From Escherichia coli (GTDB lineage Bacteria > Pseudomonadota > Gammaproteobacteria > Enterobacterales > Enterobacteriaceae), in assembly GCF_003334315.1 (NCBI RefSeq), contig NZ_QOWR01000011.1: DNA of 64,000 nt; one strand, written 5' to 3'. The notes below the pieces were generated by a model, which saw nothing but the letters and a program-made list of their open reading frames with translations, made no database searches and was not told the origin of the DNA. Position numbers and translations under genes: made by a program. Of the stretch, positions 3,524 to 64,000 are shown piece after piece. Each line of letters starts with the position of its first letter. The stretch's first letter is position 1.

Positions 3524-4189
3524 CTATGCCGTAATATCCCAACCACGCGCTTTCCACAGTTCCGGTAACTGCGAAAGATGGGTAAAGGTGGTGACTTTCG
3601 GGTGAACGATCGGCTTATTGTGCGGGTCGGCGCAGAAGTAGAACACTTCCATACCTGCGTCGATACCAGATTGCGCACCGGCAACTGAGTCATCAACCAG
3701 AATGCAGTTTTCTACATTTACATTCATCGCTTTTGCCGCATGGAACATTAACGCCGGGTCTGGCTTCCAGCGCTGAATATCGTAGCCGCTGAACAGTTTA
3801 TCCGGGAAGTAGTGCAACATATTCAGCTTGCCCATAGAATGCTGCATTTTGTTATTTGGGCCGTTAGATACCACACACATTGGCGCAGTGATCGCTGACA
3901 GGAGCGCTCCAGCCCCTTCGATGGCTTCCAGTTCTGAATCGAACAGCCGAGCGACTTCTGCACGGTAAACGTGTTCAGCTTCTGTTTTCGCTAACGTAAC
4001 ACCATGTTCAAGGGAAACAATATCGATAATTTCGTACAGTTTTACACCTTTGAAACGTTTGAATACCTCTTCAGGATCGAGCGTAATACCAAATTCCTGA
4101 AACATCGTTACATATGCGCGAGAGCAAATGACTTCACTGTCGACCAGCGTACCGTCGCAGTCGAAAAATACCGCTTCTATCCGGGACAT
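3524..4189 (-). CDS. yieH: HAD-superfamily sugar-phosphate phosphatase
   Basis: 221-aa ORF; N-terminal HAD motif I (AVFFDCDGTLVDS) with catalytic Asp pair. Confidence 0.85.
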   Translation of the reverse strand: MSRIEAVFFDCDGTLVDSEVICSRAYVTMFQEFGITLDPEEVFKRFKGVKLYEIIDIVSLEHGVTLAKTEAEHVYRAEVARLFDSELEAIEGAGALLSAITAPMCVVSNGPNNKMQHSMGKLNMLHYFPDKLFSGYDIQRWKPDPALMFHAAKAMNVNVENCILVDDSVAGAQSGIDAGMEVFYFCADPHNKPIVHPKVTTFTHLSQLPELWKARGWDITA

Positions 4190-4353
4190 GCCTTTCCTTT
4201 TTAATCAGTTTAACGTTTTCGTAGAGCCGATTTGCGCAACGCAATCGTTGCCGTATAAGTAAATCCAATAAAAAAGTCTCTCACAAACGCGCCTATTGTC
4301 GCATTTTGGTATACGATAGCGACGGATTTTCCCTCCTTGTTCGGAAATAGATA

Positions 4354-5691
4354 ATGAGTCAACAACACACAACCCAGGCTTCTGGCCAGGGGATGCTGGA
4401 ACGCGTGTTTAAACTGCGCGAACATGGCACGACGGCACGGACCGAAGTGATCGCTGGTTTTACCACCTTCCTGACGATGGTTTACATCGTTTTTGTTAAC
4501 CCGCAAATTCTTGGCGTTGCTGGCATGGATACCAGCGCCGTCTTCGTCACTACCTGTCTGATTGCTGCATTCGGCAGTATTATGATGGGACTGTTTGCTA
4601 ACCTGCCAGTTGCACTGGCACCCGCTATGGGCCTGAATGCGTTCTTCGCTTTTGTCGTTGTGCAGGCGATGGGCTTGCCGTGGCAGGTCGGGATGGGCGC
4701 AATCTTCTGGGGCGCGATAGGTCTGCTGTTACTGACGATTTTCCGCGTTCGCTACTGGATGATTGCCAACATTCCGGTGAGTCTGCGTGTGGGCATCACC
4801 AGCGGTATCGGTCTGTTCATTGGTATGATGGGACTGAAGAATGCAGGTGTGATTGTCGCTAACCCGGAAACGCTGGTCAGCATCGGTAATCTGACTTCTC
4901 ACAGCGTGCTGCTGGGGATCCTCGGCTTCTTCATCATCGCCATTCTGGCCTCGCGCAACATTCACGCGGCGGTGCTGGTTTCCATCGTGGTGACAACGCT
5001 GCTGGGCTGGATGCTGGGTGATGTCCACTATAATGGCATCGTTTCTGCGCCGCCGAGCGTAATGACTGTCGTGGGTCATGTAGATTTAGCCGGTTCGTTT
5101 AACCTCGGCCTGGCAGGGGTGATTTTCTCTTTCATGCTGGTCAACCTGTTTGACTCCTCCGGTACGCTGATTGGCGTGACCGATAAAGCAGGTCTGGCGG
5201 ATGAGAAGGGTAAATTCCCGCGCATGAAGCAGGCGCTATATGTCGACAGTATCTCTTCTGTTACCGGTTCGTTTATCGGTACTTCTTCTGTTACGGCGTA
5301 TATCGAGTCTTCTTCCGGCGTTTCTGTTGGTGGTCGTACCGGTCTGACGGCAGTCGTTGTTGGTCTGCTGTTCCTGCTGGTTATCTTTCTGTCGCCGCTG
5401 GCGGGGATGGTGCCAGGCTACGCTGCAGCTGGTGCGCTGATTTACGTTGGCGTGCTGATGACTTCCAGTCTGGCACGCGTGAACTGGCAGGATCTTACTG
5501 AATCTGTTCCGGCGTTTATTACCGCCGTGATGATGCCGTTCAGCTTTTCGATTACCGAAGGTATTGCGCTGGGCTTTATCTCCTACTGCGTAATGAAAAT
5601 CGGTACCGGACGTCTGCGTGATCTAAGCCCGTGCGTAATCATCGTTGCGCTGCTGTTTATCCTGAAGATTGTGTTTATCGACGCTCACTAA
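4354..5691 (+). CDS. adeP: adenine permease (NCS2/AzgA family)
   Basis: 445-aa polytopic membrane ORF; about 70 percent identical to the adeQ product encoded at 57174..58508 in this same window. Confidence 0.9.
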   Translation: MSQQHTTQASGQGMLERVFKLREHGTTARTEVIAGFTTFLTMVYIVFVNPQILGVAGMDTSAVFVTTCLIAAFGSIMMGLFANLPVALAPAMGLNAFFAFVVVQAMGLPWQVGMGAIFWGAIGLLLLTIFRVRYWMIANIPVSLRVGITSGIGLFIGMMGLKNAGVIVANPETLVSIGNLTSHSVLLGILGFFIIAILASRNIHAAVLVSIVVTTLLGWMLGDVHYNGIVSAPPSVMTVVGHVDLAGSFNLGLAGVIFSFMLVNLFDSSGTLIGVTDKAGLADEKGKFPRMKQALYVDSISSVTGSFIGTSSVTAYIESSSGVSVGGRTGLTAVVVGLLFLLVIFLSPLAGMVPGYAAAGALIYVGVLMTSSLARVNWQDLTESVPAFITAVMMPFSFSITEGIALGFISYCVMKIGTGRLRDLSPCVIIVALLFILKIVFIDAH

Positions 5692-9479: not shown

Positions 9480-10727
9480 TTAGCCAAATTTAGGTAACAC
9501 GTTAAAGACGTTGCCGAACCAGCACAAAATCACGGTTATACCAAAGAGAATGACAATCGCCGGAATAAGATTGCCGCCCCAGACCGTGAACATCTGATTG
9601 GGAAACTTCTTGCGAGCTTTGATTGCAAGCACTGCGGGAATAATGACCGCCCAGATGGTGGCGCACAGCCCGGCACCGCCGATCCCGTAAATAAAGCCGT
9701 TCGGGAAGATCAGATACAACAACGCAGGTGGCAGGAAGGTTAACAGCACGGTTTTGAAACGCCCGCCGTGGGAGTTATCAATCTTAAACAGGTCCGCCAG
9801 ATAATCGAACAACCCCAGCGTGACACCAAAGAACGAACTGGCAACAGCTAAGTTAGAGAACACCAGCAGGCAAAACTCGATAATGCCGTGCTGTTTGGTG
9901 CCGAGGAACGATTTCACCAGCGAATCAACGTTGCCGCCTGAGGAGATAATCGCCTTAAAGCTTTCTCGCGGAATATTCCCCATGGTGCAATAGAGCCAGA
10001 AGAGATAAATCACCAGCGCCAGCAGCGAACCAAATACTACGCTTTTGATTAACTTATCTTTGCGTTTTCCATAGCAAATAATCAGGCTGGGAATATTGCC
10101 GTGGAAACCAAATGACGCCAGACACACCGGCAAAGCCATAAAGATATACGGGAAGTAAGACGTTCCCGCAGTGGAGCTGGTGGCGTCGCGCAGAATGGAG
10201 TAATCGACCTGGAAGAAAAAAGAACCAAACACGATCACAAAGGAGATAATCTTCAGCCCGAGGAACAATGAGGTAATACGACTGGCGGCTAACGAACTTA
10301 ACCACAATACGCTGGCAACGAAAATGGCTGTGCAGATCCCGACAATACGTGGATTAGCGTGATAACCCAAATTCATTGATATCGTTTCACTAATGATCGC
10401 ACCATTAGCAGAGATATAGGCATAAGTGAGGATATAGAGAACGAAGGCAACGGTAATACCGCTGATAATGTTCCAGGTGTTACCGATTAAATCTTTGGTG
10501 ATGGTGTTAAAACTGGAGCCGACGGGATAATTTAAATTTGCTTCTAATAACAATAACCCGGAATGAAGCATTGAAAACCAGGCAATGATAAGGATAAAGG
10601 CACCCCAGAAAAACCAGGCACCGGCAAGATCAACAGGTAAAGCAAACATACCTCCACCAATTACTGTACCTGCTATAACCATAACACCCCAAAATGCAGA
10701 GTGCTTTTTTTCAGCTTGATCAGTCAT
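9480..10727 (-). CDS. tnaB: low-affinity tryptophan permease
   Basis: 415-aa membrane ORF of the aromatic amino acid permease family immediately downstream of tnaA. Confidence 0.9.
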   Translation of the reverse strand: MTDQAEKKHSAFWGVMVIAGTVIGGGMFALPVDLAGAWFFWGAFILIIAWFSMLHSGLLLLEANLNYPVGSSFNTITKDLIGNTWNIISGITVAFVLYILTYAYISANGAIISETISMNLGYHANPRIVGICTAIFVASVLWLSSLAASRITSLFLGLKIISFVIVFGSFFFQVDYSILRDATSSTAGTSYFPYIFMALPVCLASFGFHGNIPSLIICYGKRKDKLIKSVVFGSLLALVIYLFWLYCTMGNIPRESFKAIISSGGNVDSLVKSFLGTKQHGIIEFCLLVFSNLAVASSFFGVTLGLFDYLADLFKIDNSHGGRFKTVLLTFLPPALLYLIFPNGFIYGIGGAGLCATIWAVIIPAVLAIKARKKFPNQMFTVWGGNLIPAIVILFGITVILCWFGNVFNVLPKFG

Positions 10728-10817
10728 GATGCCACCTTTAGAGGAAGGCTATTTTTGTTATTGAGGATGTAGGGTAAGAGAGTGGCTAACATCCTTATAG
10801 CCACTCTGTAGTATTAA

Positions 10818-12233
10818 TTAAACTTCTTTAAGTTTTGCGGTGAAGTGACGCAATACTTTCGGTTCGTACGTAAAGGTTAATCCTTTAATATTCGCCGCGT
10901 TCTCTTTCACATGTTTAAAGGCTTCAATAATGAAGTCCATATGTGTTTGAGTATATGTTGCGCGCGGAATGGTTAAACGCAGCAGTTCAGCCGGGCATGG
11001 CAGTTGTTTACCGGTTTTCGGATCGCGGCCTAACAGGAAAGAGCCAATTTCTACCGCACGGATACCGGCGACTTTATACAGCTCGCAGGCCAGCGCCTGT
11101 GCCGGGAACTGGTCTGCCGGGATATGCGGCAACAGTTTACCGGCATCAACGAATGCCGCGTGACCGCCCGCCTGCTGGCAGACAACGCCAATCTCTTCCA
11201 GACCATCGACCAGATACTGTACCTGCGCGATACGATAAGCCAGCCAGTCGAGATTCATGCCGTCATACAGACCTACCGCCAGACGCTCCATCGCGCCGCC
11301 TTCCAGGCCGCCATATGTCGGGAAGCCTTCCTGCACCACGCAAAGGGTTCTGCACTCGGTGTACACATCAAAGAAGCTGTCGTCTTTCATGCACAGCAGG
11401 CCGCCCATCGGCACCATCGCATCTTTCTTGGCGGACATCGCCAGCATATCGGCATATTTGTAGGTTTCGCGGGTGATCTGCTCGATGGTCCAGTCTTTGT
11501 ATTCTGCTTCACGCTGCTTGATGAAATAGGCGTTTTCAGCAAAGCGCGCGGAGTCCATTACCACCGGAATATCGTATTTCTTCGCGATGCTGTACATCGC
11601 TTTTAAGTTTGCCAGTGAAACCGGCTGACCACCTGCAGAGTTACTGGTGATGGTTGCAACGATATACGGCACGTTATTCGGACCAACTTCTTCAATACCG
11701 CGTTCTAATCCCTCAAGGTCAAAGTTGCCTTTAAAGTCGTAACGCACGCCCGTATCGAAGGCTTCTTTGATATAGACGTTACGCACGGTACAGCCGTTGA
11801 TCTGGCTATGGCCCTGCGTGGTATCAAAGAAATAGTTAGAGAACGCCACCATTTTGCTGCGATCCAGGCCTTTTTCCTGCTCGCGTTTTTTAATCAGTAC
11901 CGGAATATAGATTTGCTCTGCGCCACGGCCCTGGTGAGTCGGAATGGTGTATTGATAACCAAAGATATTTTTCACTGACTCGGCTAACGCATAGTAGCTA
12001 CGACTGCCGCTGTAGGCTTCGTCGCCGCGCATCATCGCAGCCTGCATGCTCTGCGTCACCGCCCCGGTGCCGCTGTCGGTCAGTAAATCGATAAACACAT
12101 CTTCGCTATCCAGCAGGAACGGGTTCATACCGGATTTAATAATTGCCTCTTCACGATAAGCGCGAGTGGTACGTTTTACTGGCTCAATAACACGAATGCG
12201 GAACGGTTCAGGGAGATGTTTAAAGTTTTCCAT
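10818..12233 (-). CDS. tnaA: tryptophanase (tryptophan indole-lyase, PLP-dependent)
   Basis: ORF track 10818..12248 trimmed to [28 protein letters not shown]... (471 aa); beta-eliminating lyase family. Confidence 0.95.
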
Positions 12234-12453
12234 TACATAATCCTTCATTTATTTTAATTACAGTGATCCCTGTGAATATTACATCTGCTATACCGATTAA
12301 TTCGCCAGATATATATGCAAGCACCATCATTTACTAAAACAAGTAAATAAACGAGAGATGACCTTTGCAAAAGGCAAAATTAAGATATAGCAAACAAATA
12401 GATCACATTGAATCTAATCGGTTTGGCTCTGGTGATGGCTACAGAAGGGCAAA

Positions 12454-12528
12454 TCAAGGGCGGTGATCGACAATTTTGTTGTCAATATTGAACCATTTTG
12501 AGGTCACACATATATGTAAGATATTCAT
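12454..12528 (-). CDS. tnaC: tna operon leader peptide (24 aa, MNILHICVTSKWFNIDNKIVDHRP)
   Basis: Short ORF about 220 bp upstream of tnaA encoding the canonical TnaC peptide with the critical Trp12 and C-terminal Pro24 followed by TGA. Confidence 0.9.
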   Translation of the reverse strand: MNILHICVTSKWFNIDNKIVDHRP

Positions 12529-12603
12529 AATGCACTTATCCTCGCAAGACACGAGGCTACATTATTACACTCAGAGTTTTTGTCTATTCTGAAATTGTTT
12601 AAA

Positions 12604-12619
12604 TGTGAATCGAATCACA
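12604..12619. promoter_or_regulatory. CRP (cAMP receptor protein) binding site of the tna promoter
   Basis: Perfect TGTGA-N6-TCACA (aaaTGTGAatcgaaTCACAatc) about 60 bp upstream of the expected tnaC transcription start. Confidence 0.7.
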
Positions 12620-12770
12620 ATCGTTCGGGGAGCAATATTAAATGCTTTTTTTAAAGATTATAAATTACGTAAGAATTTTAATGTTTAAAAAAAGGGTTGA
12701 GGAATAACAGGAGTGGTAACAATGAAGCGAAGCCGCATCTGACAGTCAGAATGCGGCTTCGTAAGCGCGG

Positions 12771-17233: not shown

Positions 17234-18637
17234 GTGTCACTTTCGCTTTGGCAGCAGTGTCTTGCCCGATTGCAGGATGAGTTACCAGCCACAGAATTCA
17301 GTATGTGGATACGCCCATTGCAGGCGGAACTGAGCGATAACACGCTGGCCCTGTACGCGCCAAACCGTTTTGTCCTCGATTGGGTACGGGACAAGTACCT
17401 TAATAATATCAATGGACTGCTAACCAGTTTCTGCGGAGCGGATGCCCCACAGCTGCGTTTTGAAGTCGGCACCAAACCGGTGACGCAAACGCCACAAGCG
17501 GCAGTGACGAGCAACGTCGCGGCCCCTGCACAGGTGGCGCAAACGCAGCCGCAACGTGCTGCGCCTTCTACGCGCTCAGGTTGGGATAACGTCCCGGCCC
17601 CGGCAGAACCGACCTATCGTTCTAACGTAAACGTCAAACACACGTTTGATAACTTCGTTGAAGGTAAATCTAACCAACTGGCGCGCGCGGCGGCTCGCCA
17701 GGTGGCGGATAACCCTGGCGGTGCCTATAACCCGTTGTTCCTTTATGGCGGCACGGGTCTGGGTAAAACTCACCTGCTGCATGCGGTGGGTAACGGCATT
17801 ATGGCGCGCAAGCCGAATGCCAAAGTGGTTTATATGCACTCCGAGCGCTTTGTTCAGGACATGGTTAAAGCCCTGCAAAACAACGCGATCGAAGAGTTTA
17901 AACGCTACTACCGTTCCGTAGATGCACTGCTGATCGACGATATTCAGTTTTTTGCTAATAAAGAACGATCTCAGGAAGAGTTTTTCCACACCTTCAACGC
18001 CCTGCTGGAAGGTAATCAACAGATCATTCTCACCTCGGATCGCTATCCGAAAGAGATCAACGGCGTTGAGGATCGTTTGAAATCCCGCTTCGGTTGGGGA
18101 CTGACTGTGGCGATCGAACCGCCAGAGCTGGAAACCCGTGTGGCGATCCTGATGAAAAAGGCCGACGAAAACGACATTCGTTTGCCGGGCGAAGTGGCGT
18201 TCTTTATCGCCAAGCGTCTACGATCTAACGTACGTGAGCTGGAAGGGGCGCTGAACCGCGTCATTGCCAATGCCAACTTTACCGGACGGGCGATCACCAT
18301 CGACTTCGTGCGTGAGGCGCTGCGCGACTTGCTGGCATTGCAGGAAAAACTGGTCACCATCGACAATATTCAGAAGACGGTGGCGGAGTACTACAAGATC
18401 AAAGTCGCGGATCTCCTTTCCAAGCGTCGATCCCGCTCGGTGGCGCGTCCGCGCCAGATGGCGATGGCGCTGGCGAAAGAGCTGACTAACCACAGTCTGC
18501 CGGAGATTGGCGATGCGTTTGGTGGCCGTGACCACACGACGGTGCTTCATGCCTGCCGTAAGATCGAGCAGTTGCGTGAAGAGAGCCACGATATCAAAGA
18601 AGATTTTTCAAATTTAATCAGAACATTGTCATCGTAA
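17234..18637 (+). CDS. dnaA: chromosomal replication initiator protein DnaA
   Basis: ORF track 17222..18637 trimmed to GTG at 17234 ([14 protein letters not shown]...); AAA+ Walker [11 protein letters not shown]; C-terminal DNA-binding domain. Confidence 0.97.
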
Positions 18638-23279: not shown

Positions 23280-23378
23280 GCCTGATGCGCTACGCTTATC
23301 AGGCCTACGAAAATCTTGCAATGTATTGAATTTTCATGATTTTGTAGGCCGGATAAGGCGTTCACGCCGCATCCGGCA
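23280..23378. repeat. pair of REP (repetitive extragenic palindromic) elements forming a BIME-like unit downstream of gyrB
   Basis: GCCTGATGCGCTACGCTTATCAGGCCTAC and GTAGGCCGGATAAGGCGTTCACGCCGCATCCGGCA are canonical REP palindromes. Confidence 0.7.
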
Positions 23379-33446: not shown

Positions 33447-33540
33447 AGCCGATGAGGACGCGCCTGATGGGTGTTCTGGCTACCTGACCTGTCCATTGTG
33501 GAAGGTCTTACATTCTCGCTGATTTCAGGAGCTATTGATT
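33447..33540 (+). promoter_or_regulatory. ibpA 5' UTR (about 95 nt; candidate ROSE-like RNA thermometer)
   Basis: Long structured leader between the sigma-32 promoter and the ibpA RBS; thermometer function is established knowledge, the fold was not computed. Confidence 0.45.
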
Positions 33541-33954
33541 ATGCGTAACTTTGATTTATCCCCGCTTTACCGTTCTGCTATTGGATTTGACCGTTTGTTT
33601 AACCACTTAGAAAACAACCAGAGCCAGAGTAATGGCGGCTACCCTCCGTATAACGTTGAACTGGTAGACGAAAACCATTACCGCATTGCTATCGCTGTGG
33701 CTGGTTTTGCTGAGAGCGAACTGGAAATTACCGCCCAGGATAATCTGCTGGTGGTGAAAGGTGCTCACGCCGACGAACAAAAAGAGCGCACCTATCTGTA
33801 CCAGGGCATCGCTGAACGCAACTTTGAACGCAAATTCCAGTTAGCTGAGAACATTCATGTTCGTGGGGCTAACCTGGTAAATGGTTTGCTGTATATCGAT
33901 CTCGAACGCGTGATTCCGGAAGCGAAAAAACCGCGCCGTATCGAAATCAACTAA
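33541..33954 (+). CDS. ibpA: small heat shock protein IbpA (alpha-crystallin family)
   Basis: 137-aa ORF starting [21 protein letters not shown]; alpha-crystallin domain. Confidence 0.95.
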
Positions 33955-47662: not shown

Positions 47663-47770
47663 TAATATTTGGACAAAACGCAAACTGTGATCGATACTCA
47701 ACTATGCACTAAATACGTCAAAATTCGTGCCGAAATTGCGCGTTCTGCGCGGAACACGTATACTTTCAGT

Positions 47771-47846
47771 GTTGACATAATACAGTGTGCTTTGCGGTTA
47801 CCAGCCGCAGGCGACTGACGAAACCTCGCTCCGGCGGGGTTTTTTG
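47771..47846 (+). ncRNA. istR: IstR-1 antitoxin small RNA (about 75 nt); the longer IstR-2 probably starts about 65 nt upstream
   Basis: TATACT -10 element just upstream; the 5' end carries the 21-nt repeat complementary to the tisAB leader; ends at a GC-rich hairpin plus GGGGTTTTTT. Confidence 0.55.
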
Positions 47847-62825: not shown

Positions 62826-63796
62826 CTAAATATCTTTAATAAACAGCAGGCAAATCATCGCAATACCCAACATCCCTATCGCCAGCCAGAACAACGCATG
62901 GTAGCTCCAGATTTCAACCATAATTCCGTCAACAGAGCCGGCGATAATCCAGCCGACGCGTGAAGTATTTGCATATAACGTTGTCGCAGAGCCTATTTTT
63001 TCAGGCATCAAGTCCTGAAAATAAAGCATGCCGATACCACAGAGAATACCAAGGAAGATGGCATTAAGAATTTGCAATTCCAGCTCAACCGCCGGAGTCG
63101 TCGCCATGAGTACGCTGGCGTAAAAACACATTCCACTCACGATAGCAATGAGCATTAATAGTCGCTTGCCAATACGTTTCATGTAATAGCCTGCGATTAA
63201 CATCATCGGAATTTCCAGACCGGCAGCGATACCAATCATTTCTCCAGCCAGTTTATCGGTTAGATGCAGTTCATCAATAATAAATAGCGGCATATTTATC
63301 ATGTAGAGATTATTCGCCGCCCACATCATTGAACAGACCACAAAAAGTAGCCGCGTATCCCGCTTCCTGTGGGTGGAGGGTAAAATTTCTACGGGTTGGG
63401 TAACGACAGGAATATTTCTTTGTATTGATGGCAAAAACAACCAGACTATCAGTCCGCAAACAACAAATGCGATGGCAGCGGTGAGATACATCACTTTAAA
63501 ACTAAATCCCATTGCCAGTTCATAAGCGAGCGGTGGCCCGATAACCCAGGCAAGCGAGATCTGAGCACGTAAAAATGTACTGAACATGACCGTCTCACGG
63601 CCTGTTCTGTCGGCGTGTTCACGGGCGAGGGCGAACATTTGCGGGTTTGCGGTGGAAGCAAAACTACTCAGAAGTACGCCCGTTGAGAGGAGAATGAAGT
63701 AGTTGCGATTCCACGCAAAAAGCGTGCAGGCCAGCACTCCAAATAAGCAACATAGCAGAATCAGTAATTTACGGTCGCCTTGTTTATCGGAGTGCC
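62826..63796 (-). pseudogene. setC: sugar efflux transporter SetC gene, truncated at its 5' end by an IS1 insertion
   Basis: Minus-strand frame stays open with SET-family sequence (...SDKQGDRKLLILLCCLFGVLACTLFAWNRNYF...) right up to 63796, where the IS1 terminal repeat begins; the SetC N-terminus is missing from the window. Confidence 0.8.
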
Positions 63797-64000
63797 GGTG
63801 ATGCTGCCAACTTACTGATTTAGTGTATGATGGTGTTTTTGAGGTGCTCCAGTGGCTTCTGTTTCTATCAGCTGTCCCTCCTGTTCAGCTACTGACGGGG
63901 TGGTGCGTAACGGCAAAAGCACCGCCGGACATCAGCGCTATCTCTGCTCTCACTGCCGTAAAACATGGCAACTGCAGTTCACTTACACCGCTTCTCAACC
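63797..64000 (+). mobile_element. IS1 insertion sequence, first 204 bp (terminal inverted repeat plus start of insA); continues beyond window
   Basis: Starts GGTGATGCTGCCAACTTACTGATTTAGTGTATGATGGTG..., the IS1 terminal inverted repeat, and runs into the insA frame. Confidence 0.9.
63852..64000 (+). CDS. insA: IS1 InsA (transposition repressor / N-terminal transposase part), partial
   Basis: GTG start 55 bp into IS1; translation (M)[48 protein letters not shown] carries the InsA zinc-finger Cys motifs. Confidence 0.85.

Follow-up and report, generated by a model that had tools for sequence, protein, structure and literature searches.

The sequence upstream of tnaA in this stretch of E. coli DNA is the regulatory leader of the tnaCAB operon in its K-12 allele, an element that is already known. 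To judge from its features, the leader almost certainly works as a two-signal control of tnaCAB, in which CRP would supply one signal and TnaC together with Rho the other, and nothing in the sequence argues against its explanation as a tnaCAB leader. The whole stretch of DNA that we analysed, 64,000 nucleotides in length, is referred to as the window. The basis of our account is split: the sequence features, the identity to K-12, the conservation and the intactness of the genes derive from the present analysis, and stalling, Rho loading, pausing and activation by CRP derive from published work on K-12, whose sequence is identical.

Every element of the operon (CRP core, promoter, tnaC, spacer, tnaA and tnaB) is carried on the minus strand. 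An earlier note on this DNA had placed the tna leader at 12249-12620; all the elements it listed do lie inside that region, but they have to be read on the minus strand. In the 5' to 3' direction of that strand, the stop codon of mnmE is followed by an AT-rich stretch, the CRP palindrome, a weak promoter region, tnaC, the spacer, tnaA and tnaB. The genes and the segments between them are:

12454-12528, minus strand: tnaC, 24 codons plus a TGA stop, encoding MNILHICVTSKWFNIDNKIVDHRP (translation; K-12 annotation at the same place)
12234-12453, minus strand: untranslated spacer between tnaC and tnaA, 220 nt, with the tnaA Shine-Dalgarno sequence AGGA at its 3' end (annotation; stop-to-ATG distance)
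10818-12233, minus strand: tnaA, tryptophanase, 471 aa, intact, Lys270 present (translation; TIGR02617)
10779-10807, minus strand: perfect 10-bp hairpin AGAGTGGCTA/TAGCCACTCT in the tnaA-tnaB intergenic segment (hairpin search)
9480-10727, minus strand: tnaB, low-affinity tryptophan permease, 415 aa, intact (translation; NF007235)

All three products are identified by NCBIfam equivalog models. TnaC scores 44.3 bits against TIGR02616 (tnaC_leader; cut-off 23.55, E = 1e-11), TnaA 1010 bits against TIGR02617 (cut-off 825.8) and TnaB 925 bits against NF007235 (cut-off 497). Upon translation, tnaA and tnaB run without a stop or frameshift and both proteins equal those of the K-12 record, which bears out the claim of an intact locus. 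Lys270 of TnaA is the residue that binds PLP. The two genes are separated by a gap of 90 nt. From the tnaC stop to the annotated tnaA ATG at 12233 the distance is exactly 220 nt, where a spacer of about that size had been proposed. The left edge of 12249 chosen in the earlier note reflects a mechanical open reading frame: an in-frame ATG at 12248, 15 nt 5' of the annotated start, extends tnaA to 476 aa, but the annotated start, as in K-12, is 12233. This upstream ATG (12234-12248) overlaps the tnaA Shine-Dalgarno sequence AAGGA and is kept in all seven aligned E. coli. At the other end of the region, a perfect 11-bp hairpin, CGAAGCCGCAT/ATGCGGCTTCG, lies at 12728-12761 directly 3' of mnmE, with no T-run after it.

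How close is this locus to the one in which tna regulation was worked out? Alignment with a characterised tnaC leader, proposed earlier as a check, gave base-for-base identity to E. coli K-12 over 561 bp, from 12760 to 12200 (100%). Of the 5,426 complete E. coli genomes, 5,420 have a match to the leader, in each case a chromosomal one; both tnaC and tnaA are annotated on every leader-covering record among the matches listed. Around the match, the K-12 gene order is rpmH-rnpA-yidD-yidC-mnmE-tnaC-tnaA-tnaB-mdtL, and the window is collinear with the K-12 record over 8,561 bp, from mdtL to rpmH. Over this distance the two differ at three single bases, one each in yidC, tnaA and tnaB, all of them synonymous, so that the YidC, TnaA and TnaB protein sequences are those of the K-12 record. 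Several strains other than K-12 are 100% identical across the 3.4-kb operon. Given these strains and the three synonymous differences, the source is K-12-like and not necessarily K-12 itself. With the K-12 tnaCAB leader the window thus shares the 561-bp region, the CRP site, TnaC, TnaA and TnaB, the 220-nt spacer, mnmE upstream and mdtL downstream; inside the leader nothing differs.

Outside the operon, four further RNA elements pass the Rfam gathering thresholds in the window:

47716-47845, plus strand: istR (150 bits)
17744-17824, minus strand: AsdA, antisense RNA of dnaA (102 bits)
33475-33547, plus strand: ROSE_2 RNA thermometer (100 bits)
23301-23343, minus strand: ES036 sRNA (45 bits)

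The window closes with ~200 bases (63795-64000) that match the end of IS1 at 100% identity, the terminal repeat GGTGATGCTGCCAACTTACTGATTTAGTGTATGA starting near 63797; a copy of IS1 thus continues beyond the window.

Translation of tnaC gives MNILHICVTSKWFNIDNKIVDHRP followed directly by the stop codon, confirming the 24 codons, the Trp12 and the Pro-TGA ending described before. Arrest induced by tryptophan needs W12, D16, I19 and P24 of TnaC (PMC10941005; PMC3902921), and Trp12, Asp16, Ile19 and Pro24, all four critical residues, are carried by the peptide of the window. Its sequence is identical to the TnaC chain present in the structures of stalled ribosomes 6I0Y (chain 7) and 4UY8. The Pro codon is the last before the stop, CCT TGA at 12459-12454.

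Upstream of tnaC, two elements would govern initiation of transcription:

12604-12619, minus strand: core of the CRP site, TGTGATTCGATTCACA (pattern TGTGA-N6-TCACA)
12552-12569, minus strand: core promoter, with the -10 candidates TGTAAT (12569-12564) and AATAAT (12566-12561) and a transcription start at 12552 (hexamer scores; PMC2760140)

The palindrome TGTGAATCGAATCACA at 12604-12619 is the sole match to TGTGA-N6-TCACA in the 64 kb, where 0.03 matches are expected; 3 of 100 shuffled sequences contained one. The site had been called perfect, which holds for both core pentamers but not for the full 22-bp consensus, of which it matches 15 of 22 positions. Its centre, at 12611.5, lies 83.5 nt 5' of the tnaC ATG. 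The transcription start of tnaC is placed 24 nt 5' of the start codon, a known value (Deeley 1982) that was also mapped in a later study (PMC2760140), and this start falls on position 12552 of the window. Relative to it the CRP centre is at -59.5, where -61.5 would be canonical for Class I; this difference of 2 nt means either that the start has been mapped with an error of that size or that the site deviates a little from the usual spacing. A CRP ChIP-exo study uses tnaC to illustrate Class I CRP promoters (PMC5957442), and the position of the site in the window is consistent with a Class I CRP-dependent promoter.

The remainder of the promoter is poor. Both overlapping -10 candidates (12569-12561) match TATAAT at five of six positions, and from these scores we infer where the -10 hexamer would lie; the -35 region matches badly. 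A scan with the sigma-70 consensus returned no promoter on the minus strand. This is as expected if the promoter is weak and depends on its activator, and we read the empty scan in that way, not as the absence of a promoter.

Three features within or next to the tnaC-tnaA spacer bear on events after initiation:

12421-12470, minus strand: C-rich, G-poor, rut-like stretch covering the last five sense codons of tnaC, the stop and some 33-35 nt beyond (composition)
12454-12462, minus strand: boxA-like CGCCCTTGA, overlapping Arg23, Pro24 and the stop, that is, codons 23 and 24 plus the stop codon (similarity; presumed placement)
12402-12429, minus strand: complementarity to Spot 42 (nt 44-65), a reported site of this post-transcriptional repressor (local duplex prediction)

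A search of the spacer for Rho utilisation sequence had been suggested, and it yielded a C-rich, G-poor patch that is limited to the 3' end of tnaC and the first ~35 nt of the spacer; the spacer as a whole holds 35 C, 39 G, 83 T and 63 A and is not C-rich. Within the patch, the 40 nt from 12470 to 12431 contain 16 C and 6 G, positions 12469-12420 contain 20 C and 8 G, and the 56 nt from 12470 to 12415 contain 13 YC dimers. Its excess of C over G is reached by 0.9-1.5% of equally long segments on both strands of the 64 kb. Published work places the rut site just downstream of tnaC (PMC8429421; PMC12360218), and by composition we regard the patch as a putative rut site adjacent to the tnaC stop. 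Its placement is the one that the mechanism demands, since the 5' part of the patch would be hidden under a ribosome that is stalled at the stop codon. RNA polymerase pausing and Rho-dependent termination in the spacer have been described (PMC3902921), and binding of ribosomal protein L4 to the tna spacer has been reported (PMC7858274).

At the stop codon of tnaC, CGCCCTTGA agrees with the boxA consensus CGCTCTTTA at seven of nine positions. A boxA element reportedly acts in the tna leader, to judge from the title of a study by Konan and Yanofsky from 2000. Its exact placement at 12454-12462 is presumed here from the sequence similarity. For Spot 42, whose sequence was verified against E. coli genomes, the single-stranded segment pairs with 12429-12402 at a predicted -22 kcal/mol, a value matched by 8 of 1000 shuffled sequences and by 11 of 350 tiles of the window; when the full-length Spot 42 duplex with the leader was computed, 54 of 300 shuffles did as well.

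Could the tna leader instead operate in the manner of the trp operon, with translation of the leader selecting between alternative hairpins and an intrinsic terminator? Such an attenuator would likewise present, ahead of an operon connected with tryptophan, a short leader reading frame with a Trp codon in it. Yet tnaC has a single Trp codon and no tandem regulatory codons, and the scan of the minus strand between tnaC and tnaA found no intrinsic terminator-like site, that is, no hairpin followed by a U-run. The fold of the spacer RNA is not unusual either, being no stabler than that of shuffled sequences (z = -1.48; 16 of 200 shuffles fold as well). Rfam returned no leader family, whether the region was searched at a permissive E-value or the whole window at gathering thresholds; this silence means that no family exists for the leader and is no evidence against the element. 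The lack of an intrinsic terminator, of an unusual fold and of an Rfam match fits Rho-dependent attenuation and not attenuation by hairpins, and Rho dependence has been demonstrated for the identical sequence (PMC8429421, PMC12360218, PMC3902921). We rejected the trp-type hairpin attenuator on the single Trp codon, the absent terminator and the absent Rfam leader match, and its probability is close to nil.

For attenuation by TnaC and Rho, the following sequence of events is proposed. cAMP-CRP bound at 12604-12619 would recruit RNA polymerase to the weak promoter in a Class I arrangement, with transcription starting at about 12552; activation by cAMP-CRP would place the operon under catabolite repression. 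TnaC would be translated from the beginning of the transcript as the RNA emerges. When tryptophan is low, release factor would cleave TnaC-tRNAPro at the UGA codon and the ribosome would leave. Its departure would expose the C-rich, G-poor rut RNA that begins in the last codons of tnaC. Rho could then load on rut, catch up with polymerase paused in the 220-nt spacer and terminate transcription before tnaA. When tryptophan is high, it would be bound in the exit tunnel beside Trp12 and Asp16, and release at Pro24, the hydrolysis of TnaC-tRNAPro, would be blocked. The earlier proposal that tryptophan-induced stalling blocks Rho termination is supported, as the sequence is that of E. coli K-12, where experiments established both the stalling of TnaC by tryptophan and the dependence of attenuation on Rho (PMC8429421, PMC12360218, PMC3902921), and the residues W12, D16, I19 and P24 are in place. 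For K-12, induction by tryptophan is reported to reach about 30-40-fold (Table 1 of PMC10941005).

Variation among E. coli strains was followed in an alignment of the window with six divergent E. coli leaders of 94.7-97.3% identity. One TnaC protein accession is common to all seven strains: tnaC varies at five positions, all synonymous third positions, and no amino acid is changed. All of the aligned strains retain a spacer of 220 nt. Also invariant in the seven are the CRP core and the final ~70 nt 5' of tnaA, and the rut patch varies at a single G/A position.

To look beyond the species, we scanned one genome per species with a DNA pattern for K-W-F-N-I-D followed by seven codons and Pro, and filtered the matches for a short open reading frame that continues for no more than two residues past the Pro; whether a TnaA homologue lies downstream was noted as a separate item. 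The filter removed about 35 matches, which sat inside long unrelated open reading frames or lacked tnaA (Niastella, Longitalea, actinobacterial MAGs and others). After filtering, 55 leaders besides that of the window remain, and they fall into two architectures. The Escherichia type, with 32 leaders including the window, occurs in Escherichia, Citrobacter, Kluyvera, Leclercia, Klebsiella, Pantoea, Serratia oryzae, Buttiauxella, Pluralibacter and Cedecea, and the Proteus type, with 24, in Proteus, Providencia, Xenorhabdus and Moellerella. Leaders of the Escherichia type have 24-25 residues and end in Pro-stop (32 of 32), whereas those of the Proteus type have 32-34 residues and continue for one or two codons after the Pro. 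The spacer measures about 220-275 nt in the former and about 90-110 nt in the latter, and the distance from a CRP-like site to the ATG is 80-84 nt (core with at most one mismatch, 32 of 32) against about 140 nt. The 50 nt of RNA across the stop average 17 C and 6 G in the Escherichia type and are G-poor in the Proteus type; the downstream TnaA is 88-99% and about 53% identical to that of E. coli, respectively.

In the leader type of Proteus vulgaris, the KWFNID core, the Pro 12 residues past the Trp, the G-poor RNA after the reading frame and the downstream tnaA are shared with the window, but extra codons follow the Pro, for example Glu-Lys or Lys-Lys. Tryptophan is said to block elongation rather than termination in this type, going by the title of Cruz-Vera et al. 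from 2009. Leader reading frames of Xenorhabdus can be extended by upstream in-frame ATGs. A more distant parallel is provided by speFL and other Rho-dependent attenuators controlled by an upstream open reading frame, in which a ligand-dependent ribosome stall on the leader reading frame also hides rut (PMC12360218); speFL differs from the tna leader in its peptide, its ligand (ornithine) and its operon, and has no sequence relationship to it.

The features singled out in the earlier note are thus conserved across species, with the exception of the identity of the stop codon. The downstream tnaA is conserved alongside the 32 Pro-stop leaders in many genera of Enterobacterales. Among these leaders, 22 stop with TAA, five with TGA and five with TAG; the Pro-stop ending stands, but TGA is replaced by TAA or TAG in natural E. 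coli alleles and in other genera.

Are the short reading frame and the palindrome perhaps chance features of an AT-rich intergenic region? Short open reading frames are indeed common, and the list for this DNA holds dozens of 20-40 codons nearby. A CRP pattern that is expected 0.03 times per window, a TnaC match of E = 1e-11 to a curated equivalog model and substitutions in tnaC that are all synonymous among E. coli strains speak against coincidence, as does the recurrence of the peptide core, the Pro-stop and the CRP position beside tnaA in dozens of species. The conservation data refute a chance reading frame, and we give that idea no credence at all.

Within E. coli, the alignment brings out a second kind of variation in the tnaCAB leader. 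The tnaC stop is TGA in five of the seven aligned strains and TAA in two, BLR(DE3) being one of the latter. Exact 45-mer matches in complete E. coli genomes number 3,589 (~66%) for the TGA allele and 1,750 (~32%) for the TAA allele, whose 45-mer includes a G>A change four bases past the stop. The -10 region (12561-12570) also exists in two alleles, GTGTAATAAT in the window and K-12 and GTATTATACT in five of the six other strains, and in the sampled strains the stop-codon polymorphism is linked to a different -10 region. The leader of E. coli B and BL21-type strains agrees with the window in its TnaC peptide, its 220-nt spacer, its CRP core and its rut patch, but has a TAA stop in tnaC, the G>A four bases after it and GTATTATACT in place of the GTGTAATAAT of the window.

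UGA is read only by RF2, and UAA by both RF1 and RF2. Stalling blocks the action of release factor and the two stop codons differ in release factor use, so the alleles could differ in their setting. Both polymorphisms, that of the stop codon and that of the -10 region, might adjust how strongly the operon is expressed at its basal level and how sensitively it responds to tryptophan, a point that arises from the comparison set and not from the window. That the alleles set lineage-specific basal levels and tryptophan thresholds of indole production is a tentative idea, which we consider rather doubtful; if it is true, the window carries the 'UGA / K-12 -10' setting.

Larger rearrangements are found in other genomes. 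Roughly 790 E. coli genomes match the window only from the CRP core (12619/12620) onwards, and a gene for a type III effector of the ShET2/EspL2 family, frameshifted in the O157:H7 record, lies upstream in place of the mnmE-proximal sequence. Given this starting point, the variable segment abuts the CRP site and leaves it undisturbed. Strain E70 has an IS1 in the tnaC-tnaA spacer (1991-2688 of the E70 locus; about 12285-12294 of the window), as have S171-1 and EC20-72C-1. In AH62, an IS1-linked deletion (IS1 at 4050-4747 of the AH62 locus) has taken out everything from the promoter to the first codons of tnaA, including tnaC and the spacer, so that 12221-12726 of the window are missing. By insertion of IS1 into the tna leader and by deletion linked to it, natural strains probably come to change or lose their production of indole.

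Might the locus of the window, too, be silent, or altered, in spite of its intact sequence? A defect in trans, for instance in crp, cya or rho, would suffice, as would a change in regulation that lies beyond the leader, and the strain would then not need to be indole-positive. Expression cannot be read from sequence alone, and E70, with IS1 in its spacer, and AH62, with its IS1-linked deletion, exemplify E. coli that have inactivated the locus. Against this, the copy of the operon in the 64-kb window is free of IS elements and deletions, its leader has the K-12 sequence, and its TnaA and TnaB proteins do not differ from their K-12 counterparts; a silent locus is very unlikely, though the trans-acting genes lie outside the window. 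With genes that are intact and agree with K-12, an indole-positive strain is a reasonable prediction.

For the organism, the finding means that the strain is expected to form indole from tryptophan when glucose is absent. Its value is one of annotation: an intact tryptophanase operon in a K-12-like E. coli, with regulation predicted to be normal. Within its family the tna leader serves as the type example, here in the type organism, and no new biology is added by its presence in the window. It is a classic model of small-molecule sensing by a nascent peptide and of Rho-dependent attenuation, and has found use as a tryptophan biosensor.
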